Positions 2,090 through 57,352 of a stretch of 64,000 nt of DNA are shown here, one piece after another. Positions within the stretch are counted from its first letter, which is position 1. Every line of letters begins with the position of its first letter. Both the position numbers and the translations under genes were made by a program. This DNA comes from Eledone cirrhosa (lineage: Eukaryota). The notes below the pieces were generated by a model. The model had not been told where the DNA came from, made no database searches, and saw nothing but the letters and a program-made list of their open reading frames with translations. The stretch is from positions 282,038,001-282,102,000 of the forward strand of contig OZ024743.1 of assembly GCA_964016885.1 (NCBI GenBank). The letters are read 5' to 3'.

Positions 2090-3700
2090 CACCTAAAGCT
2101 ATAAGCATTCTTCCACGACACATCATCATCAGCCCAAACAAACTGCTTCACAAGTTTCAGCTGCCGACAATCACAGTGGATGCCAAGCTCTGGACAATTC
2201 AGCACCCTTAATTCCTTTGTGGAGATTTGCTGATGTACTTTGAACCACTTTAATTTCAAAAAATATTCTCATTGTATCAACCTCACTCAAGCCAAGCTCT
2301 CCACTCTGCGCAGCCTACAGCGTCATAATGACATTGTCATCGAACCTGCAGATAAAGGTGGTGTCATGGTAGTGTGGTGTGCAGACCTCTACATGACTGA
2401 AGCCCTCTGCCAGCTTCACACACATCATCTACTTCCTCCCCAAGATACACAAACCTGATAACCTTGACCATTCTATTGTTTCTGCTTGTAACTGTCTTAC
2501 CAAAATATTCTCCCTATAACTTGACACCTTCATCGCCCCCACTAGTAATCGACTTCTTCTTCTACATCCACAACACTAATCATGCTCTTCAACTGTTTAA
2601 CTCCTTCTCCTACTCTTCTGGCCCCTCTTGCCTTCTCTTCACCCTGGACATCACCTCTTTCTACATCGTCATCCCTCATAATGATGGCCTCCACACTCTC
2701 CAGCACTTTTTGGACCTATGCCCTACACCCTACGATAGCACTTTCACTCTTGTCCATCTTGTTGAGCTCATTGTCACTCTCAATGGTTTTTCTTTTCCTT
2801 TTCCGGAGAGTTTTACTAACAGGTTTCTAAGGTGGCCATGGATACCAGAATGGACCCTAACTACACCAACTTGTTTGTTGGCTATGTTGAAGCCCTGATA
2901 TTCTCCAAGTACATGGATGCACCCCTGAGCTATAGTCATTACATTGATGATCGTATCGACACCACCTCTCTCTCCCTTGAACAGGTCGACGCTTTTCTTT
3001 CATCCAGTCTTTTCATCCTGCCCTCACCTTCACCACATCCATCTCCAACTCTTCTGTCCAGTTTCTTGACATCTCTCTCTCTATTGACTACCCTCACCAC
3101 ACACACTCTTCCTCCATCTTCAATAAGCTCACTGACTCCTATGCCACAGACACCTATCTCTCCATACAATGCTCCCAATTCTTCTGTTTTCATTGTCTCT
3201 GTAGCCAGGGCCACAATTTCGAGATCCAGTCCCAACACATGGCTTCCCACTTCATCCAGCATGGATATTCACCTACCTTGATCCAAGCTACCCTCACCTG
3301 CACCAATGAAACCAACCATACCACAGTCCTCTCACCCCCAACACAGCTACCCAACATATGCCTTCCTTTCTCCCTCGCCTACCACCCCTACCACCCTACC
3401 TCTCTGGTGCCATATCCGTCTTTGCTTCCACACCCTCTCCTCTGATGGCATCACTTCTCGCTTCTTTCGAAACCCACCCATCATTGCCTTTAAGTGTGCC
3501 CATAATCTCCACAACCGCTTGGTATGCAAGTCCCTCCCTTCCTCACCTAGGACTCCACCTGGCTTCCATCCTTGTTCTTGCCCCTGCTGTAACACCTAGC
3601 CCTTCATTTCTAGCCTCACCACTCTCACAGGCACTAATGGTTCTTTCCATATCTGCCACAAAGATGTTAATGCTTCTCACACCTCCTACTACTACTTCCG
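2090..3700 (+). mobile_element. Degenerate Penelope-like element (RT, linker, start of GIY-YIG domain), frameshifted
   Basis: PLE RT motifs IVIEPADKGGVMVVW, LFTLDITSFYIVIPHNDGL, VAMDTRMDPNYTNLFVG, YIDD, then the Cys-rich PCSCPCCNT. Confidence 0.85.
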
Positions 3701-3995
3701 ACTAGTAATGGCATGAACAGAAAGAAAAGATGACTCATACAAGCTAAAACATTTTATCTATTTTCCAAGGTTTTTGATTTCTGATGAGGAGATTTTATCT
3801 AAAAAATTAAGGTCGTATTTCAGTAAAGAACAGGTAACAGAGAGTAGCTTTCTTGCCCTCATTTACCTTAAATCGTACCACACCTTTTGCATTGTTGCAG
3901 CCTTCAAATTACATACCTTCTTATACTTAATGCACAATGCTTCAAGCTTAACTACAACACTCTCTATTATATATAAATACATATATATATATATC

Positions 3996-4599: not shown

Positions 4600-8090
<3,491 letters not shown>

Positions 8091-8095
<5 letters not shown>

Positions 8096-10189: not shown

Positions 10190-10191
<2 letters not shown>
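8091..10191 (+). mobile_element. 5'-truncated Penelope-like element (Naiad-type endonuclease C-terminus) with inverted pLTR
   Basis: 8091-8385 is the reverse complement of about 9810-10103. 8386-8562 (+) encodes IVSRGIPFNSSSETCDLCAEEIFFILKSKNSLNLRTNLFSCCKHR...stop, matching the CxLCxxE...LNxRxxxxxxCxH end of PLE GIY-YIG proteins. Flanked by (TA)n. Confidence 0.8.
9995..10060 (+). ncRNA. Hammerhead-like motif in pLTR (inverted copy at about 8135-8200, minus strand)
   Basis: CTGAGGA (10004) + stem II agg-c-atggcatatt-gtt-aatatgttat-c-cct + GAAA + palindromic ATATAT; stem I pairing is poor, so possibly decayed. Confidence 0.5.
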
Positions 10192-10245
<54 letters not shown>

Positions 10246-10438
10246 GTTTATATATATATATGTATATATATGTATATATATATATATATGTATATATATG
10301 TATATAGTATGCTAGGGAAAGGATCAGGGGTGTATAACACTCCACTTATCCAGCAGGCAGTATGAGGTTAGCTCAATGTAAGGACAGAGCCGTAATATAA
10401 TAAATAAATAACAAAGAACGCTTATAGCATATGCATAT

Positions 10439-10496
10439 CTTTACTTGCTAACGTTGTTTCATCCGCACTATAAGTGGGACTCATCAGAGCATAAAG
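10439..10496 (-). ncRNA. Type-I hammerhead ribozyme (left arm; sense to the host pre-mRNA)
   Basis: Minus strand: cttta-tgct-CTGATGA-gtcccac-ttata-gtgcggat-GAAA-C-aac-G-T-T^-agca-ag-taaag. Confidence 0.75.
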
Positions 10497-11084
10497 GTTA
10501 ATTACATACCATACAAGCAATAACAAATCCAAGGCATTGAAGAATGAAAGGTAATAATAGACGATAGAGGATAAGAATAAAAATAAAAATAAAAGTAAAA
10601 ATAAAAATAAAAATAAAAATAAGGGGTGCTATCAGTCACAGTTGGGCGGGGTGCTGTCAACATATAGTTACATACAAGCATACACATGGATAAGAGTACA
10701 GACAAGAGTAGACACATGGATAAGAGAACAGACAAGAGTAGATAAGATAATGGGATTAGGTAAGAGTAGGTAAAAAATAGGTAAAAAATAGGTGAAAAAC
10801 AGACTTATAATATATATAAAAAGAAATACAAAGAAATACATAACAAACTTACATATAAAAAATAAAATATAGGGTAAGGAATGAGATAAAATAATATAAA
10901 ATTAAAAATTAAAAATTATATACATAGAACATAATATAGTATAATCGTAAAATAAGATAAAATAAGGTAAACTAAAATCAAATAACATAGACTAAATTAA
11001 AATAATATAATATAAGATATAATTAAATGTATAATTAAATGTAATTAAATGTAATTAAATAAAATAAAATAAAATAAAATAAAA

Positions 11085-11115
<31 letters not shown>

Positions 11116-11200
11116 AAATTAAAAATTAAATAAATAAATAAAATTTAAATTTAAATTTTTTAAAATTTTAAAATTTCAAAATTAAAATTCAAATTCAAAT

Positions 11201-11236
<36 letters not shown>

Positions 11237-13016
11237 ATGGAGTCAAGTAAGTAAATAAATAAAATTAGATAACATGAAATGAAATAAAATGAAATAAAGT
11301 AAATTGAGATAAGATATATATTTTTTTAGAATATATCTCTTGAATATATCAGGGGCCCACGAAGGCACTAAATGTCACAGTTATATGTATCACTTGACCA
11401 ATTTTTTAAAAAATATTTTTCATGAAAACATCAGGGGCCCACGAAGGCACTAAGTGTCACAGTCACCAGTATCACTTGACCATTGCAAGGCAATGGAGGC
11501 ATCCCAGGTTGGGCAGTCTCGAAAGTTCACTCGAAAGTCATGGGTGTGCATTCACACAGTTGAGCGGTGGGGTAATCACAAACCGGTTCACACACGGGCA
11601 GGAGTCAATTGGTCAGAGAGGTGCATCAAAGGAGGTAGAAGAATTCACATGCATTAGCAAGCGAGGTGAGATTAAAGCAAGCAGATACAGTTGTAGCGCA
11701 TACAAAATATATATAAAGACAGAAGATATATAAAAAGCCATTAAGTCACCGCATTGGGACATCACAAGATTGTACACATCAATATGTTCAGCACGTATAT
11801 GCACGTATACACACCACATGCATATGCAGAGACGGTATACATATATATATATATATATTTTTTATATATATACACAGACACATATAACCACCTACACCCA
11901 TACACATATAAATGTATACACGGACACACACGCACACACACACAGCGTAGGACACCCGGGTCAAAGCCGATATTAAATACGATATTAAATACGATATTAA
12001 ACACCGAAATACCACATTAGACCAGACCCACCACCACAGGTAATATATTCAAAACAAATACATACGATGAGATGTATTAAAATAAAGTTGAAATCCTACG
12101 GATTGTACACTCGAACCGGTCATTGGCACGTGCAGACATGAATATCTCCGTAGGATTTCAACTTTATTTTAATACATCTCATCGTATGTATTTGTTTTGA
12201 ATATATTACCTGTGGTGGTGGGTCTGGTCTAATGTGGTATTTCGGTGTTTAATATCGTATTTAATATCGTATTTAATATCGGCTTTGACCCGGGTGTCCT
12301 ACGCTGTGTGTGTGTGCGTGTGTGTCCGTGTATACATTTATATGTGTATGGGTGTAGGTGGTTATATGTGTCTGTGTATATATATAAAAAATATATATAT
12401 ATATATATGTATACCGTCTCTGCATATGCATGTGGTGTGTATACGTGCATATACGTGCTGAACATATTGATGTGTACAATCTTGTGATGTCCCAATGCGG
12501 TGACTTAATGGCTTTTTATATATCTTCTGTCTTTATATATATTTTGTATGCGCTACAACTGTATCTGCTTGCTTTAATCTCACCTCGCTTGCTAATGCAT
12601 GTGAATTCTTCTACCTCCTTTGATGCACCTCTCTGACCAATTGACTCCTGCCCGTGTGTGAACCGGTTTGTGATTACCCCACCGCTCAACTGTGTGAATG
12701 CACACCCATGACTTTCGAGTGAACTTTCGAGACTGCCCAACCTGGGACGCCTCCATTGCCTTGCAATGGTCAAGTGATACTGGTGACTGTGACACTTAGT
12801 GCCTTCGTGGGCCCCTGATGTTTTCATGAAAAATATTTTTAAAAAAATTGGTCAAGTGATACATATAACTGTGACATTTAGTGCCTTCGTGGGCCCCTGA
12901 TATATTCAAGAGATATATTCTAAAAAAATATATATCTTATCTCAATTTACTTTATTTCATTTTATTTCATTTCATGTTATCTAATTTTATTTATTTACTT
13001 ACTTGACTCCATTCAT

Positions 13017-13048
<32 letters not shown>

Positions 13049-13136
13049 ATTTAAATTTGAATTTGAATTTTAATTTTGAAATTTTAAAATTTTAAAAAAT
13101 TTAAATTTAAATTTTATTTATTTATTTAATTTTTAA

Positions 13137-13167
<31 letters not shown>

Positions 13168-13741
13168 ATTTTATTTTATTTAATTACATTTAATTACATT
13201 TAATTATACATTTAATTATATCTTATATTATATTATTTTAATTTAGTCTATGTTATTTGATTTTAGTTTACCTTATTTTATCTTATTTTACGATTATACT
13301 ATATTATGTTCTATGTATATAATTTTTAATTTTTAATTTTATATTATTTTATCTCATTCCTTACCCTATATTTTATTTTTTATATGTAAGTTTGTTATGT
13401 ATTTCTTTGTATTTCTTTTTATATATATTATAAGTCTGTTTTTCACCTATTTTTTACCTATTTTTTACCTACTCTTACCTAATCCCATTATCTTATCTAC
13501 TCTTGTCTGTTCTCTTATCCATGTGTCTACTCTTGTCTGTACTCTTATCCATGTGTATGCTTGTATGTAACTATATGTTGACAGCACCCCGCCCAACTGT
13601 GACTGATAGCACCCCTTATTTTTATTTTTATTTTTATTTTTACTTTTATTTTTATTTTTATTCTTATCCTCTATCGTCTATTATTACCTTTCATTCTTCA
13701 ATGTCTTGGATTTGTTATTGCTTGTATGGTATGTAATTAAC

Positions 13742-13799
13742 CTTTATGCTCTGATGAGTCCCACTTATAGTGCGGATGAAACAATGTTAGCAAGTAAAG
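13742..13799 (+). ncRNA. Type-I hammerhead ribozyme (right arm)
   Basis: cttta-tgct-CTGATGA(13751)-gtcccacttatagtgcggat-GAAA(13778)-caatG-T-T^-agca-ag-taaag. Confidence 0.75.
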
Positions 13800-13846
13800 A
13801 TATGCATATGCTATAAGCGTTCTTTGTTATTTATTTATTATATATA

Positions 13847-13877
<31 letters not shown>

Positions 13878-13956
13878 TTATATATATATATGTATATATG
13901 TTTATATATATATATGTATATATATGTATATATGTATATGTATATATGTATATATG

Positions 13957-13987
<31 letters not shown>

Positions 13988-14054
13988 GTATATATGTATA
14001 TATATATGAATATATGTATATATGAATATATGTATATATGAATATATGTATATA

Positions 14055-14105
<51 letters not shown>

Positions 14106-24937: not shown

Positions 24938-25043
24938 ATATTCATTAAATATAAAGCATGGCCGTTTCAAGTTATTTTCATATCTACCCGAGATACAGAT
25001 TGTGCCATTAAGTTTTCCATAAACAGGTTTCCCATATGTATAG
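24938..25043 (-). CDS. A2M/TEP-like exon (MG3)
   Basis: tttag|...|gtaaac; YTYGKPVYGKLNGTICISGRYENNLKRPCFIFNEY (YTYGKPV motif); 106 nt, phase 2-0. Confidence 0.93.
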
Positions 25044-27702: not shown

Positions 27703-27761
27703 TTAAGGTGGTAATACCATGCACATAGCTACATACACCTATCAAATAAAGGTATACTTAC

Positions 27762-27846
27762 ATTGCACAGATCTCCACATCAACTATCTTTGAGAGAAAG
27801 CTTAAGTGTGATGGTAGCTTAAGTGTTAATTCATATTTTGGAAGCA
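27762..27846 (-). CDS. A2M/TEP-like exon (MG3)
   Basis: ttcag|...|gtaagt; VLPKYELTLKLPSHLSFLSKIVDVEICA completes the FEVKEYVLPK(F/Y)E motif; 85 nt, phase 1-2. Confidence 0.93.
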
Positions 27847-29851
27847 CTGAAATTTAAAATAGAATACAATAAAAAGATAAGGTAAAAGAATTTGCAAAGA
27901 TTTAACTTTTAATATACACGCACTCACACACGTGTTACTGTCTACCAATATCACTCAAGGCACTGGTTGCCTTCAGTTTATGGTAGAAAATACTTGCTTA
28001 ATGTGCCAAACAGTGGAAAAAAAATAGCTTAGATTAATTCCACTTAAGAGCTTCTTTAACTATTCCCAACCATTATTGTTTCTTTAATATTTCAAATATT
28101 TCCCATGGTTAAGATATATTATTATAAGCTAGGTAGAGTTTATAATAATATATCTTGTGATAAGGGTGTTGGACTTACGATCATAATGCCGTGGGTTCGA
28201 TTCTTGGGCTGGGTTGTGTGTTATGATCTTGAGAAAATCACCTCATTTCACGTTGCTCCAGTATACTCAGCTGAAAACAAGTGCCAGCAATAGCTGGGAG
28301 TTTAACCCTGCGATGGACTAGCATATTGTCAGGGGGAGGGGGTCTTGTACTCTCAATTGCTTCATGTCATGAAATTGGGATAAGCACCAGCCTAACAAGC
28401 CTTGTGGTTTAAGACAGATTTATACTGAGGTAGAGCTGACTAAAACAGCAGAAGGCCATAATAAGCAAATTATAACATTTAGATGTCCACTTCTCAGTTT
28501 CAAGTTCTTCTATTGACTTGTATTAGGCATGATGACAGTCACATCATATATTCCAATAGATTTATGTAGCATTGTCCCATCATTATGTCTTTCAAAATGA
28601 ATGACAGTGTAGAGCTGGGGGCATTGCTGGAAGCAGAAGGGCAAGTGACATCACATAAGTAGATGTAGCAGGAACGTGATTTTCCTCTTGGTTATAAGTC
28701 AGTTGGAGAGAGAGAGGACATGTTTTTGTCACATGCACTGGAGTTATATGTTCATATGTTCTGGCCATATGTTCATATGTTCTGGTGGATAGGGCACTCA
28801 CGGATATACCACATTCTGGACAAGATCAATCAGGAGGACATCCCGTGAGGTAGATGAGCTGTGCTTTTCTCCCTTTACAACAGATAGTTTCTGATTTAGG
28901 CACAAGACTACTAATTTTTTATAGGGGGTTATTAAATCAGCTCCAGAACTTGACTGGTACTTTATTTATCAACCCCAGAAGGATGAAAGGCAAAGGTGGC
29001 ATCAGCAAGATAATAACTCAGAAGGTAAAGAGCCATAACAAATACCACAAAACATTTTGTTTGATTCTTTCACATTTCTTCCAATCCTCTACCTATTTAC
29101 AAAGTTATTAATACTTGTGGGTGCTACTCCTTACAAGAATACTGAAACTGTTAGAGTTTACATTGTTATCCATGCTTATAGCATAAACAACAGTAAAATG
29201 ATTTATTCAGGATTTTCAGCAATAGTTTCTTATTTGAGGAAGTATAGAAGACACCAGTATCAGTTGATTAAATTTACTGCAAGAATTAACTGGTATTTTA
29301 TGGTAACTCTTAACATCCAGTAATGATTTAGCAGAAAGTATTTAAAAATGAGTTTGTTAATTAAAATGTTTATAGTGTCTTTACTGATGAACAGATTCTT
29401 GTGAGAATATGCTGTAAACTAAAGTAAAGATTTTGAATGTGATGCAGTCATAGTACTGTTTTGTACTTTTCAAGAATGTCTTACTAATATGGTTTCATGT
29501 GGTACAAGACATTAAGAGTTAATGACAAAGTTTACCACCATGTCAAATACAAAACATAACAACAAATAAAAAAATATTTCTTTTTCAGATTTTGTAATTT
29601 AAAGAGCTTTCATCATTTTCCTATATTTATAATTTGTTTAACAATCATAGCTCATTTTTGTCTGGCCCTCTGAAGTCATGGAAGACCATGGGTTGCATCT
29701 TTAGTGAGCTGGTCCCAGGGTTACTTACTCCCGTAAGCACCACCGGATCCCAGTTACTAAATTTAATCGAAATATGAGATAGGAGAATTTTCATACAATA
29801 TCAGGCCGTGTGAGAATTATCTCTCACTACTAGAAGTAATGACTGAAAACG

Positions 29852-30732
29852 TAACAAGTTTCTCAAAACGAGTATCCAGTATAACCTTGCTTTTATTGTA
29901 GATCCATGTTACAAACGTGGTAAACAAATATCCTCGTGACATAACGAGGTATAATCCTGAACCATGAGATGGCGTTGAAAAAGGATTATATTGCTTGCGC
30001 TCAATGTGATTAGTTTGAGGAAAGCCGCCAAAAAGAGGAAGATGGATTTGAGTTCCCTCTTTTATAATCCCTTGACCGGAAGTTACAAGGAAGGTTCTAG
30101 AATTTCAATGGGAAGTAACTCTAGCTACTTCCCTTGTCTAGAGAGCGCTACAAGACTCCTCTCTCAGAGGAAAAGTCGAATAACCAATCGAAGATCATTG
30201 TAGCGAGAACCCATAAGAAATGAGGAGCAAAACAAAAGGTACAAGAAAATGAATGAATAAAAAAAAACATGAGCAAGCAAATAGCAAAAATGAGCATAAA
30301 ACAAGTAATGCATTTTACAAAGAATATGTTTGAATGTAACAATTGATAATGTAACAATTGATAAATCATAGTCAATACAAAAGAGCAGAGAAAATTGATG
30401 CTCAATGGTGAAATCAATGTTTTTCAAAGTCAAATAGTTCATCCATTACTAGTGTGCAGACTTTCTGACACTAGTTCTATCTGAAACTGAAAAAGAAGTT
30501 GTTAATGCCACTACGATGGCATAACGAGGCATAATCCTGAACCATGAGATGGCGTTGAAAAAGGATTATCATGCTTGCGCTCGATGTGATCAGTTTGAGG
30601 TAAGCCGCCAAAAAGAGGAAGATAGATTTGAGTTCCCTCTTTTATAATCCCTTGACCGGAAGTTACAAGGAAGGTTCTAGAATTTCAACGGGAAGTAACT
30701 CTAGCTACTTCCCTTGTCTAGAGAGTGCTACA
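29852..30732 (-). mobile_element. Small LTR-retroelement relic with 216-bp direct repeats (29937-30152, 30517-30732)
   Basis: The repeats are highly similar and start TGTAGC on the minus strand. A purine tract (gagagaggag) precedes the left copy, which continues through AATAAA. The 364-bp interior is non-coding; no TSD found. Confidence 0.6.
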
Positions 30733-31370
30733 CATCCTTTAGATAGGTTTTTGTTTGGTTGGGACAGTATCATATGTGGCTGAAAAACCCAATGCAGGAT
30801 TGACAGACACTGTTGCAGAGCACATATTTATATGTGTTTACTGGTCTGTGTGTACTACTATGCTCCTTTCTGCATGCTAACTTCTCCATAACAACCTCGC
30901 TTTTTCCATCTTCAGGTAGCAGTTCAAGATACCCCTTCATCACACTTAGTCCTCTGCAAGGCTTTTTCAGGATTCTGTATTAATATTGAGAACTTTCATG
31001 TCTCTCATGCAGAAATTGCTGTAGTGCAGTTTGGAATGACCAATGGATATATTCCAATATGCTAGTTCTCCATAGAGGTTATATTTTTGGATACAACCAT
31101 AATGTATATGCTCAAAATTCCAGTATAGAACAGAACTGTTATGTTAACTACTTTATTTTTCAAGTATATGAGGTAGTTAATATAAAATTATTAAACAAAA
31201 ACATTGTCATGGTTTTAAAATATTAAACTTTTGATTATTGTTGTTGTTAATACTATAATACTCTTATTGATATTTCTGGTAATAGCAGAGTGGCAATGTC
31301 TTTCAATTAATTTTCAAAAGAATCAAGCTTTCAAAGAAGATTAATAAAAATATATCTTTGATATTTTACT

Positions 31371-34300
31371 CGGTGCGTACTCACACTCTATGCAAATTAG
31401 TCTGCCCACTACTAATTTTCATAGAAAAAGCATATAACGATATGTGCTTTTACAATTCTCCAGAAGGGCCGGTAGATAGGTAAATATTGCTGATGAGTTG
31501 TAACAACAACGAAACTAGTTCAATATTCCTTGTCTGGCCTTCTGGAGAATAGAGGGAAGGTGTTCCCTCAAAAACCAGTATGACTCTAAAAACCGGTTTG
31601 TCTGTGTGTTTACATACAGAATAGCTGGGTGCTCACAGTAAAGCAACCAGTGAAAGACTTGTTACATATACATATGTATACGTGTGTGTATTCATATACA
31701 CACTAGTATTTCAGTATGCATATGTAGATGTAATTTTTTTTAACTTAATTGTTTAAGCGTCAGTCATACAAAAGTGAGTTACAAACGAAACAAGATTTAA
31801 TTTCGTTTCGTTATTTGTTTTTATCGTCTCCGCTGAACCGGTGCGTACTCACACTCTATGCAAATTAGTCTGCCCACTACTAATTTTCATAGAAAAAGCA
31901 TATAACGATATGTGCTTTTACAATTCTCCAAAAGGGCCGGTAGATAGGTAAATATTGCTGATGAGTTGTAACAACAACGAAACTAGTTCAATATTCCTTG
32001 TCTGGCCTTCTGGAGAATAGAGGGAAGGTGTTCCCTCAAAAACCAGTATGACTCTAAAAACCGGTTTGTCTGTGTGTTTACATACAGAATAGCTGGGTGC
32101 TCACAGTAAAGCAACCAGTGAAAGACTTGTTACATATACATATGTATACGTGTGTGTATTCATATACACACTAGTATTTCAGTATGCATATGTAGATGTA
32201 ATTTTTTTTAACTTAATTGTTTAAGCGTCAGTCATACAAAAGTGAGTTACAAACGAAACGAGATTTAATTTCGTTTCGTTATTTGTTTTTATCGTCTCCG
32301 CTGAACCGGTGCGTACTCACACTCTATGCAAATTAGTCTGCCCACTACTAATTTTCATAGAAAAAGCATATAACGATATGTGCTTTTACAATTCTCCAGA
32401 AGGGTCGGTAGATAGGTAAATATTGCTGATGAGTTGTAACAACAACGAAACTAGTTCAATATTCCTTGTCTGGCCTTCTGGAGAATAGAGGGAAGGTGTT
32501 CCCTCAAAAACCAGTATGACTCTAAAAACCGGTTTGTCTGTGTGTTTACATACAGAATAGCTGGGTGCTCACAGTAAAGCAACCAGTGAAAGACTTGTTA
32601 CATATACATATGTATACGTGTGTGTATTCATATACACACTAGTATTTCAGTATGCATATGTAGATGTAATTTTTTTTAACTTAATTGTTTAAGCGTCAGT
32701 CATACAAAAGTGAGTTACAAACGAAACGAGATTTAATTTCGTTTCGTTATTTGTTTTTATCGTCTCCGCTGAACCGGTGCGTACTCACACTCTATGCAAA
32801 TTAGTCTGCCCACTACTAATTTTCATAGAAAAAGCATATAACGATATGTGCTTTTACAATTCTCCAGAAGGGCCGGTAGATAGGTAGATATTGCTGATGA
32901 GTTGTAACAACAACGAAACTAGTTCAATATTCCTTGTCTGGCCTTCTGGAGAATAGAGGGAAGGTGTTCCCTCAAAAACCAGTATGACTCTAAAAACCGG
33001 TTTGTCTGTGTGTTTACATACAGAATAGCTGGGTGCTCACAGTAAAGCAACCAGTGAAAGACTTGTTACATATACATATGTATACGTGTGTGTATTCATA
33101 TACACACTAGTATTTCAGTATGCATATGTAGATGTAATTTTTTTTAACTTAATTGTTTAAGCGTCAGTCATACAAAAGTGAGTTACAAACGAAACGAGAT
33201 TTAATTTCGTTTCGTTATTTGTTTTTATCGTCTCCGCTGAACCGGTGCGTACTCACACTCTATGCAAATTAGTCTGCCCACTACTAATTTTCATAGAAAA
33301 AGCATATAACGATATGTGCTTTTACAATTCTCCAGAAGGGCCGGTAGATAGGTAGATATTGCTGATGAGTTGTAACAACAACGAAACTAGTTCAATATTC
33401 CTTGTCTGGCCTTCTGGAGAATAGAGGGAAGGTGTTCCCTCAAAAACCAGTATGACTCTAAAAACCGGTTTGTCTGTGTGTTTACATACAGAATAGCTGG
33501 GTGCTCACAGTAAAGCAACCAGTGAAAGACTTGTTACATATACATATGTATACGTGTGTGTATTCATATACACACTAGTATTTCAGTATGCATATGTAGA
33601 TGTAATTTTTTTTAACTTAATTGTTTAAGCGTCAGTCATACAAAAGTGAGTTACAAACGAAACGAGATTTAATTTCGTTTCGTTATTTGTTTTTATCGTC
33701 TCCGCTGAACCGGTGCGTACTCACACTCTATGCAAATTAGTCTGCCCACTACTAATTTTCATAGAAAAAGCATATAACGATATGTGCTTTTACAATTCTC
33801 CAGAAGGGCCGGTAGATAGGTAGATATTGCTGATGAGTTGTAACAACAACGAAACTAGTTCAATATTCCTTGTCTGGCCTTCTGGAGAATAGAGGGAAGG
33901 TGTTCCCTCAAAAACCAGTATGACTCTAAAAACCGGTTTGTCTGTGTGTTTACATACAGAATAGCTGGGTGCTCACAGTAAAGCAACCAGTGAAAGACTT
34001 GTTACATATACATATGTATACGTGTGTGTATTCATATACACACTAGTATTTCAGTATGCATATGTAGATGTAATTTTTTTTAACTTAATTGTTTAAGCGT
34101 CAGTCATACAAAAGTGAGTTACAAACGAAACGAGATTTAATTTCGTTTCGTTATTTGTTTTTATCGTCTCCGCTGAACCGGTGCGTACTCACACTCTATG
34201 CAAATTAGTCTGCCCACTACTAATTTTCATAGAAAAAGCATATAACGATATGTGCTTTTACAATTCTCCAGAAGGGCCGGTAGATAGGTAGATATTGCTG

Positions 34301-35496
34301 ATGAGTTGTAACAACAACGAAACTAGTTCAATATTCCTTGTCTGGCCTTCTGGAGAATAGAGGGAAGGTGTTCCCTCAAAAACCAGTATGACTCTAAAAA
34401 CCGGTTTGTCTGTGTGTTTACATACAGAATAGCTGGGTGCTCACAGTAAAGCAACCAGTGAAAGACTTGTTACATATACATATGTATACGTGTGTGTATT
34501 CATATACACACTAGTATTTCAGTATGCATATGTAGATGTAATTTTTTTTAACTTAATTGTTTAAGCGTCAGTCATACAAAAGTGAGTTACAAACGAAACG
34601 AGATTTAATTTCGTTTCGTTATTTGTTTTTATCGTCTCCGCTGAACCGGTGCGTACTCACACTCTATGCAAATTAGTCTGCCCACTACTAATTTTCATAG
34701 AAAAAGCATATAACGATATGTGCTTTTACAATTCTCCAAAAGGGCCGGTAGATAGGTAAATATTGCTGATGAGTTGTAACAACAACGAAACTAGTTCAAT
34801 ATTCCTTGTCTGGCCTTCTGGAGAATAGAGGGAAGGTGTTCCCTCAAAAACCAGTATGACTCTAAAAACCGGTTTGTCTGTGTGTTTACATACAGAATAG
34901 CTGGGTGCTCACAGTAAAGCAACCAGTGAAAGACTTGTTACATATACATATGTATACGTGTGTGTATTCATATACACACTAGTATTTCAGTATGCATATG
35001 TAGATGTAATTTTTTTTAACTTAATTGTTTAAGCGTCAGTCATACAAAAGTGAGTTACAAACGAAACGAGATTTAATTTCGTTTCGTTATTTGTTTTTAT
35101 CGTCTCCGCTGAACCGGTGCGTACTCACACTCTATGCAAATTAGTCGGCCCACTACTAATTTTCATAGAAAAAGCATATAACGATATGTGCTTTTACAAT
35201 TCTCCAGAAGGGCCGGTAGATAGGTAAATATTGCTGATGAGTTGTAACAACAACGAAACTAGTTCAATATTCCTTGTCTGGCCCTCTAGAGAATAGAGGG
35301 AAGGTGTTCCCTCAAAAACCAGTATGACTCTAAAAACCGGTTTGTCTGTGTGTTTACATACAGAATAGCTGGGTGCTCACAGTAAAGCAACCAGTGAAAG
35401 ACTTGTTACATATACATATGTATACGTGTGTGTATTCATATACACACTAGTATTTCAGTATGCATATGTAGATGTAATTTTTTTTAACTTAATTGT
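31371..35496 (+). repeat. Tandem array of 468-bp hammerhead-containing units (8 full + 382 bp); candidate non-LTR retrozyme
   Basis: Units start at 31371, 31839, 32307, 32775, 33243, 33711, 34179, 34647 and 35115, with only a few substitutions between units; the ORF track lists no ORF here. Confidence 0.97.
31483..31527 (+). ncRNA. Type-I hammerhead ribozyme, copy 1 of 9 (others start at 31951, 32419, 32887, 33355, 33823, 34291, 34759, 35227)
   Basis: aatattg-CTGATGA-gttg-taacaa-caac-GAAA-C-ta-G-T-T^-caatatt: complete core, 7-bp stem I, 4-bp stem II with G10.1-C11.1, palindromic ACTAGT stem III. Stem I is extended by attctccagaagggccgg/ctggccttctggagaat (31455-31550). Predicted cut after 31520. 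Confidence 0.9.
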
Positions 35497-35658
35497 ATAA
35501 TTAAGTGGTATTCGTAAAATAACTTGTTAATATGTTCTTACACAAAACTCTTATGGAATTTTTTAAAGGTTTGTAACATATACTGAAAATAGTTTCAGAA
35601 AGGTATGTAAGGAGTCATCAAAAAGTTCACAAAATTTAGTGAATTAATTAAAGGTTAC

Positions 35659-35772
35659 CATATTCTTTAACTTCAAATGTTTTTCCCTTTTTCTGTCCTT
35701 CTGTTTTAATGTTTATCAGCCAATTACCAAGAATAGGATCATCAGAAAGCTGCATTTCCAGGGAAAGTAAGC
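35659..35772 (-). CDS. A2M/TEP-like exon (MG2 end)
   Basis: cacag|...|gtaacc; GLLSLEMQLSDDPILGNWLINIKTEGQKKGKTFEVKEY; 114 nt, phase 1-1. Confidence 0.93.
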
Positions 35773-48039: not shown

Positions 48040-51000
48040 GGCGACCTACGTAGTAAATCGTATCATCGTGAGCTCCGCAAAGGTTTGTTATTTCCGTTTG
48101 TTAAAAATTGCCATTTATGGAAAATGTTATTGTTAACTGTTTATAAGCGCACATACATTGTTTTCTGAAAGGGACACCCAAAAAGATTGGGGCCTTGTGC
48201 CCAAAATTTAAACATTTATAATTATCAAAAACATTTCTTTGAAAAAAAAACATGGAAGTCTCACAGCCACACGAAGCTGACAGCCTTCCTCATAAACTAA
48301 CACCTCACACCGACACCACCATTGTAAATATTACTACATTTGCCAACACTAAAAATTTAATCAGTAGCAATATTTTTAATTTGTCTCAGGCAGACATTCA
48401 TTTCCCGCCATTACCAATGACTGCAGGTGTTAAAGCCGCCACCACCACCACTACCGCAACAACCACCACCACGACAACAGAAACAAAAGGAAAAAATAAA
48501 TCAACTCGTGATGTCGAAATGTTTTCAACCAAAATGGACTCTTCCACACTATAAAAAAACTGACGTCACCAACACCACAACTGAAACTAAAATTAATAAT
48601 AACAAAAATAACAATAACAACAACAGCAACAATGACATTAAAAAAACCACCCTGAGTTTTGCCAGAGTACCAAAACAGTGCGAAGCATTTACGGTAACTC
48701 AGGAGGAATTAGAAAATGCCAAAAAAATGGTAAAGAAAGATGGGTACGATGTGTACGCATCACCCAGCCGTCCGGGATCGGGGTAAGGAGTTGCTGTGCT
48801 TTTTCGGAGAGGTTTGGTTCTTGCCATACGAGCCATCTTCCTGGACCCAGAAGGTAAGTTGGTGGTGCTAGACGTGACCAGCGGAGACGGGCAAGCTTTC
48901 AGGCTAGTGGCCGTCTATGCCCCGACAGGAGCAGGGCGGCCTGATTTCTTCCGGCGTCTGGAGACCTTTCTTGGAACGTCCCGCTCTTTAGTGTTAGTGG
49001 GCAACTGGAACGGGATCTTAGCTGCACGCTGGGACTGTGTGGGATCAGCGGATAGGGGAGGAGGGTGCAAGAGCCTCACCAACTTGCTCAGGCGTTTTGA
49101 ACTGTCTGACAGGTACCGATTGGATTTCCCGAATGTGCCAATGTGGACTTGGACAAATCGCATAGGGTCATCCAGATCATATTTAGATAGAGTATTTTGT
49201 AGGGAAATAGATAGGTCTAGCATAGGCTGTCCACAATTCAAGATAGTCAGCTACACGGACCACAAATTCGTGATCTGTGTGCTTGACTTAGATAGGCTTC
49301 ATAGACGAGGACCCGGCTACTGGAAGCTGAACGCGTCCTTACCAGCGAACTAGTTAAGCGGGCTCTGAAAAGAGCAATTAGAATAGAGTCCATTAGGTTT
49401 AGTAAGGCTTTAGCAATAGAGAAAAATAGAGCAGAGGGAGAATTAGTTAAAAAATTAGACGAGGCGCTTAGCAAAGGCATCGCGACCGACGTACTTGCGG
49501 CGAAATTGGCCCTTGACCAATTCTTCAATGCAAAGTACGAAGGCTGCGTTGTCAGAGCTAGTGTGCGTGCTCTCAGACACGAGGGGACGAAAGCCATTCA
49601 ATGGGCCCGAGTGGCGGAGGCGCGTCGTGGCAACAAAGCCACGATCCGGTCTTTGGTGGACCACGACGGGCGCATGCTACTCGATCTCGGGCAAATGTGT
49701 GAAGCTTTTCAGCGACACTTCGCACAGCTGTTCGGAGGCAGCGGCGGGCCGGATCGAGGGATGGACTTTAGTGTTTACCTTGACGGACTGCCGCGGCTCT
49801 CGGCCACTGAGGCGGAGTGTTGCGAAAAGCCAATAACAGCCGCTGAAGTACGGGAGGCAATGACTGGCTGCACAAGGGGTAAATCGCCTGGTTTGGATGG
49901 TCTGCCCTATGAACTTTACGTAGAGATGCCAGACTTGTTCGGAGGCCTCTTGGCGGACGTCTACTGCAACTGGCAACAGAACGGGAGAATTCCCAGCTCT
50001 GTGAGCCGAGGAGCTGTGGCGCTGCTGAGAAAGGATCCGAACAAGGGGGATAACATAGATAATTTTAGGCCCATAACTCTGCTAAACACAGAGTTCAAGA
50101 TTTTGGCCAAGGTGCTAGCAAAGAGGTTGGCGCTTGTCGTTGGTGGTCTGGTGGGAGAGGCACAAACATGCGCCATTCCCGACAGATCCATCCACGACAA
50201 CCTCCACCTCATGCGATACATCGTAGAGAGGGTAGCTAGGGAACCTGGCACGGGTGGGTCTTTGATAAATTTAGATCAGTCGAAAGCTTTCGATAGGGTC
50301 GACCATCGTTACCTAGCGGCAGTCCTGAGGGCGGCTGGCTTTGGGCCCGTCTTCAGAGGCTGGATCGCTGCCATGCACAGAGACATCTGCTCTGTGGTGA
50401 GAGTGAACGATCACCTTTCGGAACCGTTCAACATCATGCGCTCGGTCCGCCAAGGATGTCCCCTCTCGTCCCTCTTGTACGTATTGACTCTCGAGCCCTT
50501 ACTGCACAAACTGGAGACGTTGAGGGGGGTCCCGCGCGAACTAGGATGCGGAAGATCCGTGTCAGCATATGCGGACGATGTCACCGTAGTGGTGTCGAAC
50601 GCCAAACACATCGAGGCAATCGGCACTACACTAAGAGAATACGAAGCGGTGACAGGAGCAATGATCAACCAGGAAGTCAGTGGGCCTGCAGCTCAGCACC
50701 TGGAGAGGCAGATCCATGCCGTCCAACAGCGTCGTCGGGCGCTGGACGGACGGACCGGTTAAATTGCTAGGGGTCTGGTTCGGTCCCGACCTCCAGACGG
50801 ACAAAAACTGGGACGAGGTGACGAGCAGGGTGGCTTCTCTCACCCAGAAATGGGCGGAGAGGAAGCTATCCCTGAAAGGTCGAGCGGAGGTGGCTAACGC
50901 GTACATCGCGTCCATCATCTACTACCGCCTGACCGTTGTACCTTGTCCTACGCCCCGCCTGACTGCGCTGGAGCGTTTGCTCTTTCGCTTTTTGTGGAAG

Positions 51001-52178
51001 GGACGTGCTCCGATGATCAGGCGGTCCATCTGCTGTCAACACCCGTAACGCGGAGGGCTGGGCATGCCGTGGCTGATGATGCGCAGACATGCGTTCGGGC
51101 TACGGCATCTCCACCTCTTCCTCGACGGTGATCAGGTGTGGTCGCCCTTTGCTAGACACATGTTTCCCCAGCTTGTCTCTTTGGCGGAGCTGCAGTCCTG
51201 GGTCAAGCGAAGACCGAGAGGAAGCGCTTGGAGACTGGAATGTCTTCAGGCGCTTACAGCCCTCAACTAGTCGAGCAATACAATCGTTGGAAACTCTACC
51301 TTGGCTTTCTATAGAGGATTAGTGGAAGGAAAGAGCAACGACATCCTTGGGAAGCCTCTAGGCGTCGAGGAAAACCAATTAGCCAATCTCTTCGGGAGAA
51401 CTTTCAGGCCGGGGCCCATGGACAACTTCCAGAAATCCCTAGCCTGGCAGTGCTACCGAGGAGCCTTACCAGTTCGGGATAAACTCTACAGGCATGAAAG
51501 TGCCGTCAGCCGGGCCTGTCCGAGATGAGCACAGGGCGGTGAAACCGTCCTGCACGCACTTGTCCAGTGTCCGAACATTGCCGATTTGTGGGTTTATGCC
51601 GAACACCTGCTGTCACGTGTAGAACAGATCCGGCTATCAGCTGAGTCCATCATGAAGATTGCCCCACCACCTTCCTTTAGCCGAGAAGGGCAGGCAGTTT
51701 TTATCTTCCTGGTGGCCATGGTAAAAGAGATTGTATGGTGGGCACGTCTGAAAGGGTTGAAGACCGGTACTTTCCTCCTCGGTGACGCCCTCATTAACTT
51801 TTTCAGGTTTCACCTGAAGAGGAAAATCAGGGTGAAGAGGGAAGTGCTGCCTTCCAGCCTGTTTGTTGAAAGGTGGGTGAGAGAGGCAAGAATGGTCTGT
51901 GTGAATGGGTCTACCTTGAGCGTGTGCCTGTAGCATTGTAGGAGGAAAACTAGAAGAGGGCATTTGCCCTAGCGGTCAGGGTAACCGTGGCTTTTCTTGT
52001 GGGCTTTCTCCACGAGCAACCCTCGGAGGTCTCCCCTCTATTGGGAATTTTTCATTGTTTCTTTTGTCACATACTCTGTTTTGTTTTTTTTTACACGCAG
52101 AAATGCCCATTTGTATTGTCCTGTGTTGTCCTTAATGTTATACTTTGTGTCAACCCTTGTGGTTAATAAAGAAAGCAT
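48040..52178 (+). mobile_element. Tx1/L1 LINE family A, internally deleted, with stops and frameshifts
   Basis: ORF1 start joined to the AP endonuclease (VAVYAP, SYLDRVF, YTDHK), then RT (KSPGLDG, NFRPITLLN, LDQSKAFDRV, VRQGCPLS, AYADD) and a C-terminal Cys/His motif; ends aataaagaaagc(ATT)n and is preceded by (ATT)n. Confidence 0.92.
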
Positions 52179-52425
52179 TATTATTATTATTATTATTCGT
52201 GGATTGGCAGTATCGGTAGAGGGTCGGACGCCGTACTTTCATACATAGTTACGGCCCTTGCCATTCTGAGTTCAAATCCCGCCGAGGTTAACTTTGCCTT
52301 TCATCCTTACAGGGTCGATAAAATAAAGTACCAGTAATGCACTGGGTAGTTGCTGGCCTTGTGCCAAAAGTAGAAACAATTATTATTATTATTATTATCA
52401 TTATTATTATTATTATTATTATTAT

Positions 52426-55400
52426 AGTTGCATTTATCTTGCTTTATTTTCATATGAGTTATCACCAAGTCACAACCAGTGACCTCAAGAGACAACAAGG
52501 TCCGCCATGTTCAAGAAAGAACATACATACACATGCATCTTTAGGTGTTTAGACTTGTGATGTACTTATATTGACAGAATCTTCCTTAGTATATGGGCAG
52601 TTCCCATTAGTACTATCTTTTGTATTTCTTCTATATGCGGGTTTCCTGGGATTTGCGATAAGTAATCATTAGACCCCTTAGGTATCATTCCTAGAGCGCC
52701 TACAACCACTGGTATTGTTTTAGTTCTCAACTTCCATATTTTTCCAATTTCTATCTCCAGGTCTTTATACTTGCTCAATTTTTCAAATGGTTTTATAGAT
52801 ACATTCTTGTTTATTGGAACGGACATATCAATCAGCAGGCATACCCTCTTTTTAAAGTCCTTCAGTATTATATCAGGTCTATTTGCATCTATGTTTCGGT
52901 CTGTTTGGATGCTAAAGTTCCACAAGATGGAGATGTGATCTTTTTCAAGTACGGGAGGTGGTTGATGCTCCCACCAATTCTTTTGTTGGGGCAGGTCAAA
53001 ATGCTTACACATTATCCAATGTATGTATTGTGCAGCTCTGTCGTGCCTGTTTAGGTATTTGGTTGGAGCTATAGGACTGCACATTGAAATTATATGATCA
53101 ATGGTCTCTGGTTGTTTTTTACACACACGGCATAATGGGTTGCATCCATTTTTTATTATGTTGGCTTGATAATTTTTTGTTGGCAGACACTGATTTTGTG
53201 CTGATATAATCAGTCCTTCAGTCTCCAATTTCAGTCCAGAGGATGCCAACCACTGATGGGTTAAAGTTTTGTCAACATCAGGATTGTTAGCTCTTTCTGG
53301 GTATTTTCCATACAGAGGCTTTTCTTGCCATTTCTTAGCCAGTTTCTGTAGCAGTTCTTTCTTTGCAGTTACTTTTACCTGCTTTGCTTTTTCTGTGTTT
53401 TTCATTTCAGCAGTAAATAAAACTTCTGAAATTTGTAGTTCATTGCTGTATCTTTGTGCATCTTTTGTAATGGAGTATGATCTTTTGATGCTTTCATGTT
53501 TCAAAACAAGTTTGATCATCCAATCATGTGATTCCCTTAGATATGTAAATAATCCAATTGTTGCAATTGATAGATTTTTGTGTCTATTATGACAATCTTC
53601 CAGTATCATTTTGTTAACCAAAAGCTGATCCTTACAGCCACATGAGTCTCGTTTACACCCTTTCTGCTCATTTGTTATCAGGTGATCATATGTATATTCA
53701 ATTAGGACTGATGTTAAAATGTTATACATTGTGGTCAAGCAAGTTATTGGTATGTAATTTTCGGGATTGTTTGTCTCATCATTCTTCGGAAGTAGGAATG
53801 TAATGCCGTTAACTAGCCATGATGGTATCTTTTCTGGCTTAACCATTTCATTGTAAAGTTGGGCTAACAGCTCATGAGACTCTGTGAAGGCATTTATTCA
53901 AAAATTTGGTATTTTGTCTTTCCCTGGGGATTTCTATTTGCTGGATTTTCTAAGAGCTAAACGCAGATGTTCAACTATTATATTTTCCCATGTTTTTTCC
54001 TCAAGGTGAGCTGTGTCTGTCTATCCATGGGGTATGTATATTATGAACTTTTTCTTCGGACCAGATCTTTTCCCAGAATTCTTGCACTTCCTCCTTGGGT
54101 GGTACTGATTTAGCAGTTATTGTTGACTTGCCAATTTTTCTGTTGACGTTTTTTTGGTTGTTTTTGAACATATTATTGTCCTTATAGAATCTAGATTGTT
54201 TTTCAAAGCGCCTTATACGAGCAGCTTTGGCCAAAACTTTTTGCTTGATTGTTTCTATCAGCATGTCTATGTCACTTGTTGATTTTATATTGTATTTTCT
54301 TTTCAATTTTCTAAGTTTAGTTTGTTTAACATGTTCACCTACTTTATAGTTTGCTAAAATTTCTATGTCAGATCGGAGAAGGTTTATTTGGCGATTGATG
54401 TTCTCTTGCCAAGTAGGTTTTTTGTGGGAATTCCTTTGTCTTTTCATTTTCACTCCACATAAGTGAGTGGTGACTTTAGCCGATGCATAATAGAGATGAT
54501 TTAGATCAGTAATGTTTAGATTATTTGTGATGATAATGTTTTTGAGAGTTATGTTAGTCTTGTGTATTATCCTTTGGTTTTGTTTGGAGTTCTGGATCTT
54601 AGGAAGAGTGTCTCGTTCCCCCATGTCAGATTCTTTAATTTTCATCCATTCGATCATAATTTCATTCTTCAAGTTGGTGCGTTTGTTCTCATTCATTTCT
54701 TTATCATTGACGATCTCATTGTTTTCATTTTGAGTTTCATCTTGAGCATGCACTCCTTCCACTTTTTCGATTCTTTCTTTAATTTGTTCTGTTGTCAGTG
54801 ATGCCGCCCCAACCCTGGGATTTGAAGTGTTACAATTTACCTCGTTTTCACTGACACATGTTTCATTTTCCCTTCGCTGGCTTTACGCTAATTGCTTGAT
54901 CTGGTCAATTTCTATATCAGTTAGTAACTTTTTCTTAACAATATTTCTTTGTATATTGGCTAGTTTGTTACTGTCAGTATAGTCTCTGTTTTCGGGAAGT
55001 TTCTTTTTCCAGTTGATATACGTCTGTTCTGTATTCGATCTATTTGATGGGTTTTACATGGCAGTGTAGAAAGCCTCAAGGACTTCTTTATTGTTTGCCC
55101 TTGACCATTTTTCTCTCTTTTTCTTTGGATTTCTTGGTGGTGAGCATGGAGGGCCAACAGTAGGAGTATTCTGGTTATGGGAGGTCTCCAGCTCTGAATT
55201 GATGCGAAGGTTTGAACCATTAGCTGATTTTTCGACCCCAGTCTGGTTCCTCTCTGAGGGACGCGGCCCTTTTTGAGAACGGGTGACGGCCGATCCGGTA
55301 TGAGATTTTATCATTTGACATTGGCTTTATTTTGTTGCGTTTTATCCTTAACCGCCAAGGGGCAATCATTTCGTGTTACCACTCCTAGGACGAGTGTCAA

Positions 55401-55551
55401 CCAAGACTAGAGGGGTCGTCCTCCCCTAGAGACACGGCTATTCCCCGTCGGCCGCCATCCCGGTATTTCTTGGTCACGGGTTTTTTTTTTTTTTTAAATT
55501 GTTATTATCATGAGTGGTTCCTTAATGTGAGCCCTTCGTGGCTGAGAAAGA
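52426..55551 (-). mobile_element. Dong/R4-clade non-LTR retrotransposon, internally deleted
   Basis: ORF 52566-53846 has CRVC..ETIDHIISMC, RHD, RPDII..LIDMSVP..KxxKYxDL (restriction-like endonuclease) but jumps from NLSIA to TIGLFTYL, skipping the RT core; (TAA)n at both ends. Confidence 0.9.
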
Positions 55552-56139
55552 AATTATTATTAATAATATACTTTTTGTTGAAGTTGCCACTGTTGTTGTT
55601 GTTGGCTTTGCCGGTGGTGCTGGGGCTTTTTCTATTGTTGGTGAGGGACTTCATTGCCATAGTAGTTAACTTCTGACCGAGTCACTATGTCAGTCTATTT
55701 ATCTTTTATTAGCCTCTCCCTTGTCTAGTGTTACTGCAACCTTCTCCTTTCTTAAGTTAACAGAGGGTAGTGGGGGAAAAGTGGTGGTAGCAATGGTGGA
55801 GTGGTGGCGGCGGTGATGGGATAATGGTACTGTAGTGATGGCATTGTAGCCACTAAATTCTGTTGAATAGAATAGACTGTATCTATTACTACTGTATTGT
55901 GTTTGTTTGATCTGTATATCTATGCGGTTTGTCGCCTATGTTTAATATACATGTTGACATATTTCTTTAATATTTGAATTAAATATTTTGAGATACAATA
56001 ATAATTATTATTATTATGATGCTGGGATAGGTGGTGTTGAAATTGCCGTTATCTGGCTGTTGTAATTAGTATTTATATTTTTGTATTTAGTGCACACAGA
56101 GGGTGGTGTATCTAGGTTGTGGTGGTGAAATTGCTGTTA

Positions 56140-57285
56140 TTTGGTGGCTTTTCTTGTGGGCTTTCTCCACGAGCAACCCTCGGAGGTCTCCCCCCTTTTG
56201 GGAATTTTTCATTGTTTCCTTTTGTCACACTCTGTTTTTGTTTTTTTACACGCAGAAATGCCCATTTGTATTGTCCTGTGTTGTCCTTAATGTTATACTT
56301 TGTGTCAACCCTTGTGGTTAATAAACAAAGCATTATTATTATTGTTACTTGAAGAGGAAAATCAGGGTGGAGAGGCAAGTGCTGTTTTCTAGTAAGTTTG
56401 TTGAAAGGTGGGTGAAAGTGGCGAGTCTGGTCCGAGTGAACGGGCCCGCTCTGAGTATGCGCCTGTAGACTGAGGAGTGGGAAAACTGAGAGAGGGCGGT
56501 TGCCCTGGTGGTCAGGGTGGCCGTGGTCTTTTGTGTGGTTTTCGCCACGAGTGACCCTCGGAAGTTTCCCCCCTGTAGTGACCTACATTCCGCGGGCTCC
56601 TATACATTCTCCGTGCGTTATTTGGCTCAGCCCAGCCAATGACCGCCAGCGGAGGAGAATGTATCTCTAGGCGCCCTGAGGGAAAAATTCCCGCGTCGGC
56701 TCAGAAGATCTCTCTCTTGAACCTTGACAGCGCTAAGGTAAACAACTGCTTTTCTTTCGCCGTGTAATCACTGGCCAATATGTAACACAACAATTTAACC
56801 ACGGCCTGGCAACACTTCAGCCAGTAGACCGTGCCTTTCGGAAATCTTAATTCGTTTGTTTTATTTCTCTTGGGATGTCAGCTCTACTCAGCTCAACCTT
56901 TGTTAATAAATAATGTAAAACAAGCTAAAGTCGTTGTCGATATTCCTACCATATCTTTCTACCGAACTGGTTACTCATGGCGCTATAACTATTACATTAC
57001 TACTTCTATAACTCTACTAAACTGGTAATTATAATAGGACTACTACATCTATATAATACTGCTAAGACTGCGGAGTACATAAGTATGAAATGCTCCTTTA
57101 AAATATATGTACCTCAACCACACATTCCTGTTAAACCCCTATTGGGGAATTTTTTTTGTTATTTGAATTTTTTTGATATTTCTATCATGTTATAACCTTT
57201 TTTACACGGCCAAAACCCACATTGTATCATTCTCTGCCGTCTGTAATGTTTTTTTTTCATGTTAGCCCTTGTGGCCAATATGGGA
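56140..57285 (+). mobile_element. Two tandem 5'-truncated Tx1/L1 3' ends (family A 56140-56335; family B 56348-57285)
   Basis: Close matches to 51990-52178 and 62386-62950 respectively. Confidence 0.85.
56574..57135. mobile_element. Probable solo LTR inserted in the L1 3' UTR
   Basis: 562-bp block absent from the sister copy (about 62605). Starts TGTAGTG, contains AATAAA, and is flanked by an apparent 4-bp CCCC duplication; ends ...GTTAAA rather than CA. Confidence 0.6.
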
Positions 57286-57352
57286 TAATTGCTGGCCTTG
57301 TGCCAAAAGTAGAAACAATTATTATTATAATAAAGATATCATTATTATTATT

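Follow-up and report, generated by a model that had tools for sequence, protein, structure and literature searches.

We analysed a stretch of 64,000 nucleotides of the Eledone cirrhosa genome (contig OZ024743.1, positions 282,038,001 to 282,102,000; hereafter the window), whose plus strand holds at 31371-35500 a tandem array with a period of 468 bp, 8.8 copies and 99% matches by Tandem Repeats Finder. The original prediction, made from the letters of this DNA, had described 8.8 head-to-tail units without an open reading frame (ORF), each with a complete type-I hammerhead ribozyme, and had proposed a retrozyme without long terminal repeats (a non-LTR retrozyme) in an immune-gene intron; the array was reproduced. 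The reading that we favour, with measured rather than high confidence, is that the array is one arm of an insertion of a dispersed non-LTR retrozyme, and that a Penelope-like reverse transcriptase (RT), borrowed for the purpose, likely made it by circling one 468-nt RNA. In coordinates that begin at the first base after the predicted ribozyme cut (q1 = window 31521, q468 = 31988), this arm is 5' truncated at q319 and has its 3' end at a short site, q~232-236. Compared with unit 3, each of the eight full units carries 0-2 substitutions; one periodic variant is common to four adjacent units, and the window copy has a swept pair of variants of its own, q19 and q274.

The predicted ribozyme is present in every unit, with nine intact cores (CTGATGA) at 31490+468n and one shared text in 9/9 units (AATATTG-CTGATGA-GTTG(TAACAA)CAAC-GAAA-CTAGTT-CAATATT). 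In the first, at 31483-31527 on the plus strand, a stem I of 7 bp (31483-31489/31521-31527; AATATTG/CAATATT, with a G-U pair in four units) encloses the core (31490-31496), a G-C-closed stem II of 4 bp (31497-31510), GAAA, and a stem III made of one A-U pair and a palindromic loop (ACUAGU). The cleavage triplet is GUU, and the expected cut after 31520+468n, itself a prediction, agrees in position with the anatomy of the motif; a bulged extension of stem I is predicted around the ribozyme at 31462-31550 (plus strand). A motif scan of both strands of the window found no other motif of this kind outside the array, and the array has no ORF of at least 70 amino acids counted stop to stop. No Rfam model, Hammerhead_1 included, attained its gathering score in the window; the match of Hammerhead_HH9 to each unit has E 7e-8 and 38.2 bits, below the 52 bits required for that model. 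The microRNA-family Rfam matches are matches to TA/TG low-complexity hairpins. The whole monomer folds far better than its shuffles (z -10.3 when linear; -148.7 vs -94 +/- 6 kcal/mol when circular), the isolated ribozyme has a fold z of about -1.6 to -1.9, and minimum-free-energy folding did not reproduce the active core. The idea that a 468-bp unit is unusually long had to be dropped, since it lies inside published ranges (150-450 bp, PMC7229834; 51-972 bp, bioRxiv 10.64898/2026.07.22.740005). An assembly artefact that over-expanded one or two units, for which the 99% identity of the units and a copy number read from the assembly would speak, is exceedingly improbable: the units carry distinct substitutions, and many other multi-unit loci have consistent ends. 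One contig of public run X1 (kind unrecorded, possibly the source sample) spans the left junction of the array; the depths of X1 contigs, when added up, do not amount to a copy number and were left aside. After the short end, the right junction (35486-35507) shows ATA and an inverted match of 8 nt (aattaagt), with no (TA)n tract and no target-site duplication seen; elsewhere in the family TA tracts hide any such duplication. We looked for paralogues of the right flank and for an empty site, and found the window alone. The window copy is thus an atypical member, a short-end arm only, with neither TA flank nor second arm.

The genome (3.0 Gb) contains the 27-nt ribozyme core in 5,235 exact copies, and q304 joined exactly to (TA)4 at 2,315 places; the reversed control gave 0 for each. 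The element therefore belongs to a family of thousands of scattered copies, multicopy and dispersed without LTR organisation, and the proposed non-LTR retrozyme class is borne out by tandem non-coding hammerhead units, this dispersal and the highly self-paired monomer. Recent amplification, also proposed earlier, agrees with units 0-2 substitutions apart in the window and zero-divergence arrays in the family. We read 91 loci (numbered with L): the 40 most like the window unit (best 40 of 917 candidates), the 26 first core matches on contig C1 and the 25 most like locus L072; the sample is non-random, 65/91 being chosen by unit likeness and 26/91 by exact ribozyme core, which weakens any generalisation of our reading. 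Two fixed internal sites take 144 of the 152 arm 3' ends in these loci, with 78 at q299-306, 66 at q226-239 and 8 elsewhere, and TA repeats lie within 25 nt of 138 of the 144. The short site (q229-236, family-wide; 31749-31756 in the window, plus strand, +468n) and the long site (q304 = 31824) would be two internal start sites of reverse transcription, and the ~70-nt "tail" between them (31756-31824, plus strand) contains a hairpin (31781-31818) and has a fold z of -0.6. Two divergent arms, one with a long and one with a short end, make up 53/91 loci, and a single locus has two long ends; at several one-armed loci the second arm is only 7-15 nt, below the reach of BLAST. Arms extend up to 12.5 kb, about 27 units, their 5' ends are scattered evenly across the unit with no peak at the cut site, and arm-to-arm joints mostly have 1-5 nt of overlap, or short gaps. 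We rejected q319 as a transcription start (3 loci) on the even spread of 5' ends, and run-off at the cut site (q1) because the q1 cases continue into q460-468.

Outside this genome, sixteen other organisms hold 12-26% of the unit's words, and two were compared further. In run X5, from another organism, almost the entire unit is present, together with the same q304+TA end and a GUC variant, which a close relative, a transfer or contamination could each explain; run X6 holds parts of the unit only, at low depth. In run X4, contigs cover the unit and do not cover the unique intron; its kind is unrecorded, so it was not used as evidence of expression, and among the listed holders of the unit, whose run kinds are unrecorded, no RNA dataset was identified. 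Our literature search, which did not extend to Repbase or Dfam, found no account of this family, nor of such a footprint for a retrozyme; the supplements of PMC7229834 and of the bioRxiv preprint may list relatives.

The layout of two arms, two fixed ends and TA repeats is the "tail" footprint of Penelope-like elements (PLEs). In PLE insertions one copy is inverted and 5' truncated, and just one end bears a tail (PMC8557442). In vitro, a PLE protein cuts AT-rich DNA on both strands and extends both, starting at two internal positions in the RNA that lie one tail length apart, and does so without any need for ribozyme cleavage (PMC11167929). PLEs have been called strong candidate movers of animal retrozymes (PMC7229834). 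The Penelope-like mobilisation that had been suggested for the array thereby gains support from the genomic footprint, the enzyme being deduced from it. TA tracts that adjoin retrozyme loci often contain PLEs of at least four families, and an intact PLE ORF of 821 amino acids occurs in 39 of the 150 matches listed; the family that carries it has the two-arm, two-end, TA layout in 3/3 loci read. This ORF has the motifs RLRW, DKT and CxCX5C, a C-terminal GIY-YIG-like stretch, CxxC and CxH, while the Hydra clade is described by RW, DKT, CxCX5C, CxxC and CxH, with nearly all members targeting (TA)n (PMC8557442). By these published motifs, the 821-residue ORF would belong to a Hydra-clade PLE; Pfam and PDB searches with it gave no useful match.

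This intact Hydra-clade family would be the best candidate partner of the repeat, and it is a candidate only, because three observations stand against a closer link. The repeat shares no significant sequence with four Hydra families (best E 0.07, low-complexity only; no likeness to pseudo-LTRs, or pLTRs, or to 3' ends); tails of the Hydra families in this genome are about 90-115 nt vs ~70 nt in the repeat; and TA-targeting Naiad elements exist, molluscs included (PMC8557442), our comparison having covered the four Hydra families. At L031 (L087:203-2909) a 15-unit retrozyme arm lies head-to-head with a 5'-truncated Hydra-family PLE, possibly a chimeric two-template insertion or a deletion; we did not accept it as proof of partnership, since the PLE end is missing. 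The Hydra-clade PLEs seen in L087-L091 and L122-L125 fall into at least four families, of which one has numerous intact 821-residue ORFs in multi-unit two-armed (TA)n insertions; the pLTRs of these families hold hammerhead-like cores. Further hammerhead-like motifs of other families lie beside insertions at L064, L083 and L104 and in our listing of hammerhead motifs. The window itself has the short 3' end of one Hydra-family PLE (6080-6180, the same text as the L090 tail) within a 3.5-kb (TA)n tract at 4603-8091, and at 2230-3710 on the plus strand decayed PLE-like RT/endonuclease fragments, recognised by eye, with no Pfam match.

Whether the template was one circle or a multimer can be judged from how variants are distributed among units. 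Several observations speak for one template per insertion. L072 has 22 segments over two arms, with one substitution in all. Among 20 two-armed loci of the young subfamily, a variant is found in every covering unit of both arms at 11/20, and a sweep of one arm only at 0/20. A variant of the cut site, GUC, fills both arms of several loci, and the more units a locus has the fewer private mutations it carries (Spearman -0.44, p 6e-4, 56 loci). On the ribozyme strand, A>G accounts for 14/34 swept variants vs 18/209 private ones (p 7e-6), and the swept variants count 14 A>G vs 4 T>C (p 0.03); the A>G test was pooled after the fact, and in the first set homopolymer and dinucleotide zones had been masked. 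At L072, three clustered A>G changes are present in every unit that covers the site. Adenosine-to-inosine editing of an RNA template would give such an excess of swept A>G.

The same element and Penelope-like enzyme could as a rule have copied a long, uncleaved linear multimer transcribed through an existing array, circles being a side product or absent; we think this unlikely, though it is the alternative to which we give most weight, and several of our observations lean towards it and away from the single circle. At L039 two unit types, A and B, alternate in register in each of the two arms and the terminal unit is a distinct one, and terminal units share variants at L056 and L021, patterns that fit a heterogeneous multimer template. 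The L072 unit is identical at four other loci, so that source arrays can pass on variants already swept, and the identical arrays at five loci could be a source and its daughters. At L128 (1265-1817) the 5'-most 1.2 units come from another subfamily, with GUC, which suggests a template switch during reverse transcription. Furthermore, the ribozyme would be weak (GUU, 1-bp stem III), and the RNA that a PLE mainly uses in vitro is unprocessed (PMC11167929). As to editing, the A>G excess is not significant in the second (young) set alone (p 0.06), and selection favouring G-U pairs competes as an explanation. Nevertheless, on a multimer a new variant needs a one-unit bottleneck to fill all units, yet 5 out of 13 swept variants are seen at just one of 27 loci. 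No arm of the L072 haplotype longer than the 13.6 units of L072 was found among the 39 loci scored, out of 263 candidates. Sharing in register, over 43 two-armed loci, amounts to 5/103 vs 13/514 off register, and comes mostly from two loci.

A different origin, in which insertions of 1-2 units grew later into arrays by unequal crossing-over, in the manner of a satellite, has been suggested as a scenario (bioRxiv 10.64898/2026.07.22.740005). Adjacent or periodic variants fit it and count against copying from a circle, since they point to duplication after or during insertion: they occur in the window (four consecutive units), L081, L085/86 (period 3), L056 (period 4) and L130/131. The least diverged arrays are, however, the longest (fast homogenisation would lower private variation too, and so may contribute), the two inverted arms are of great length and identical, and keep intact fixed ends, and no sweep is limited to one arm; we regard this origin as quite improbable. 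Taken together, our data favour insertions made mostly by copying of monomer circles, with some multimer templates and later duplications.

With regard to the ribozyme, metazoan hammerheads with a one-bp stem III function as dimers when tandemly repeated, and are presumed to remain uncut in monomer circles (PMC4209133, PMC7229834). Because the unit has a GUU triplet and a 1-bp palindromic stem III, cleavage of its RNA is predicted to be probably dimer-dependent and slow. Several points weigh against efficient processing of the unit RNA. GUU is cleaved more slowly than GUC. It is family-wide in this repeat, with 74 non-U copies at the cut site, and the extract of PMC1636495 does not mention GUU. 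Among Xenopus retrozyme dimers, 8/9 did not cleave and 1/9 did (bioRxiv 10.64898/2026.07.22.740005). Within the family the 45-nt core has 2/45 polymorphic columns vs 43/327 elsewhere, and tests of purifying selection were not significant (p 0.14 and 0.54). A sister family (family 2; L091:1468-1770, L094-L105), colinear with the main one, has a 428-bp unit, 1,851 candidate places and the same long end and TA targets; its ribozyme combines a CUGACGA core with U-U at the stem II base and with a GUA triplet. Between the families the core is kept and stems I and II are changed on both sides in 6/12 pairs, a covariation in favour of the ribozyme; as it comes from two families, about one event, it is weak as statistics.

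Upstream of each ribozyme lies a possible promoter. The U6-type proximal promoter motif CTATGCAAATTAG (31388-31400, plus strand, +468n) resembles the motif at -76 to -78 of host U6/U6atac genes and is present in sister family 2 too; a TATA-like box follows at 31433-31438 (plus strand), 43 nt after it (46-48 nt in host U6/U6atac), and places the predicted start near 31462-31466, that is q410-415, just upstream of the ribozyme. Both families have TATGCAAATTAG with a TATA-like box 42-43 nt on. Host U6 genes have the same motif at -76 to -78 and TATA at -30, U6atac differs by one change, and U2 lacks the motif. Compared with U6 upstream regions, the unit has a 14-nt exact match to one of three (0/200 shuffles); matches to the other two U6 and to two U2 were not significant. 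The host U6 and U2 genes (L106-L111, L112-L117, L118) lie in tandem clusters, the upstream motifs of U6/U6atac and U2 clearly differ, and U2 genes have a TATA-like stretch near -35. Some features are unfavourable to the proposed promoter: the spacing from motif to TATA is 3-5 nt shorter than in host U6/U6atac, the youngest haplotype has three changes within the motif, and the T8 run of the window copy (31734-31741, plus strand; T5 or T3 in other subfamilies), a predicted RNA polymerase III (Pol III) stop upstream of both RT start sites, would end transcription early. The first run of at least four T is that T8, at q214, in the window's subfamily and lies at q298-302, at the long end, in the youngest; depletion of T4 runs 3' of the predicted start in the youngest subfamily has P 0.07. 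An external promoter would be copied only if the template ran through it, which a circle or read-through would supply. Metazoan retrozymes seem to lack promoters, no promoter and no motif pointing to a retrozyme partner being reported in the extract of PMC7761336, unlike this repeat with its host U6-type motif. Newt satellite 2 is cited as having an internal snRNA-type (small nuclear RNA) promoter (Coats 1994, via PMC2220036), which the putative promoter of this repeat would resemble; the motif here matches host U6/U6atac, not U2, while newt satellite 2 is cited as a Pol II unit (PMC2220036).

Based on these results, the cycle that we propose would start with an RNA over several units, from the in-unit U6-type promoter or from outside read-through. 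Adjacent hammerheads, to judge from their anatomy and the literature, would pair via the palindromic stem III and cut after GUU, and a host ligase would close the monomer into a circle that, with its single ribozyme, would be stable. A TA-targeting Penelope-like protein, to which the observed footprint points, would then cut both strands of (TA)n, cDNA beginning at q304 on one strand and at q~230-235 on the other. Each cDNA would circle the RNA for 0.1 to about 27 units, after which the 5' ends of the two would be joined; the likely mode is rolling-circle reverse transcription on a single circle, which has been proposed for elements of this kind. The tandem output would return the external promoter to the front of each unit, and later small duplications would give the periodic variants. 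In its most complete form, an active animal retrozyme whose insertions record rolling-circle reverse transcription by a Hydra-clade enzyme, on an ADAR-edited circle, from two fixed sites and into both TA strands, with tandem output that lets an external U6-type promoter be inherited, the proposal is tentative and on the doubtful side.

The array lies in an intron (~27847-35658) of a minus-strand gene of the TEP/CD109/A2M family, 160 bp from the donor of the upstream exon. That exon (35659-35772, minus strand, the end of MG2) matches TEP1 at E 9e-4, with CD109 next best; the next exon (27761-27846, minus strand, the start of MG3, donor end approximate) and one at 24947-25043 match MG3 at E 2e-4 and 1e-4, just short of the Pfam cut-off. 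The intron position given by the original prediction therefore stands, the gene being one of the TEP/A2M family, and the immune-gene placement looks incidental, the array being antisense and one of thousands of insertions. As the ribozyme strand is antisense to the gene, host pre-mRNA lacks the hammerhead, and no effect of the array on the host gene is indicated. Elsewhere in the window, a large inverted duplication (10190-14100) has ORF translations and tandem repeats mirrored about ~12125, two diverged short-repeat copies (29820-30104 and 30514-30730) upstream of the array are high-copy in run X1 too, and nested LINE-type retrotransposon fragments occupy 48240-62650 (RVT_1 at 49305-50759, E 2e-26).

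The retrozyme class is already known; what is new is this family and its unusually informative insertion evidence. Hammerhead matches have been counted in the giant squid genome (PMC6962438), and for retrozymes an origin from PLEs has been reported, with the mechanism left unresolved (bioRxiv 10.64898/2026.07.22.740005). As in the metazoan non-LTR retrozymes of coral, mussel and axolotl (PMC7229834, bioRxiv 10.64898/2026.07.22.740005), the units are non-coding, tandemly repeated and some hundreds of bp long, with one type-I hammerhead each, low GC content, strong self-pairing, thousands of copies and PLEs in the same genome. The repeat, known here from DNA alone, differs from them in its GUU triplet and in the two-arm, two-end, TA footprint and one-unit sweeps documented here, and from the Xenopus families in having no likeness to the four PLE pLTRs compared. 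With satellite 2 of newt and axolotl (HHR_Amex1 type) it shares a one-bp stem III, a palindromic tetraloop and predicted dimer action (PMC7229834, PMC4209133), in an unrelated host group and with a longer unit. With Hydra-clade PLEs (Craig 2021, PMC8557442) and Poseidon PAc (Frangieh 2024, PMC11167929) it shares the inverted 5'-truncated arm, one-end tail, two adjacent internal RT starts, (TA)n targets and a hammerhead upstream of the RT starts. Unlike these, it has no ORF, a canonical type-I ribozyme and arms of up to about 27 units, and its tail of ~70 nt compares with 30-40 nt published for PLEs (PMC8557442, PMC11167929) and the longer tails of this genome's Hydra families.

In conclusion, the window locus is itself an ordinary, slightly atypical copy. 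The family to which it belongs offers, all in one genome, thousands of sites that show the footprint, arrays of zero divergence, a sister family and intact ORFs of a candidate partner, and the circle-template model can thereby be put to a defined in-vitro test, since the start positions are known.

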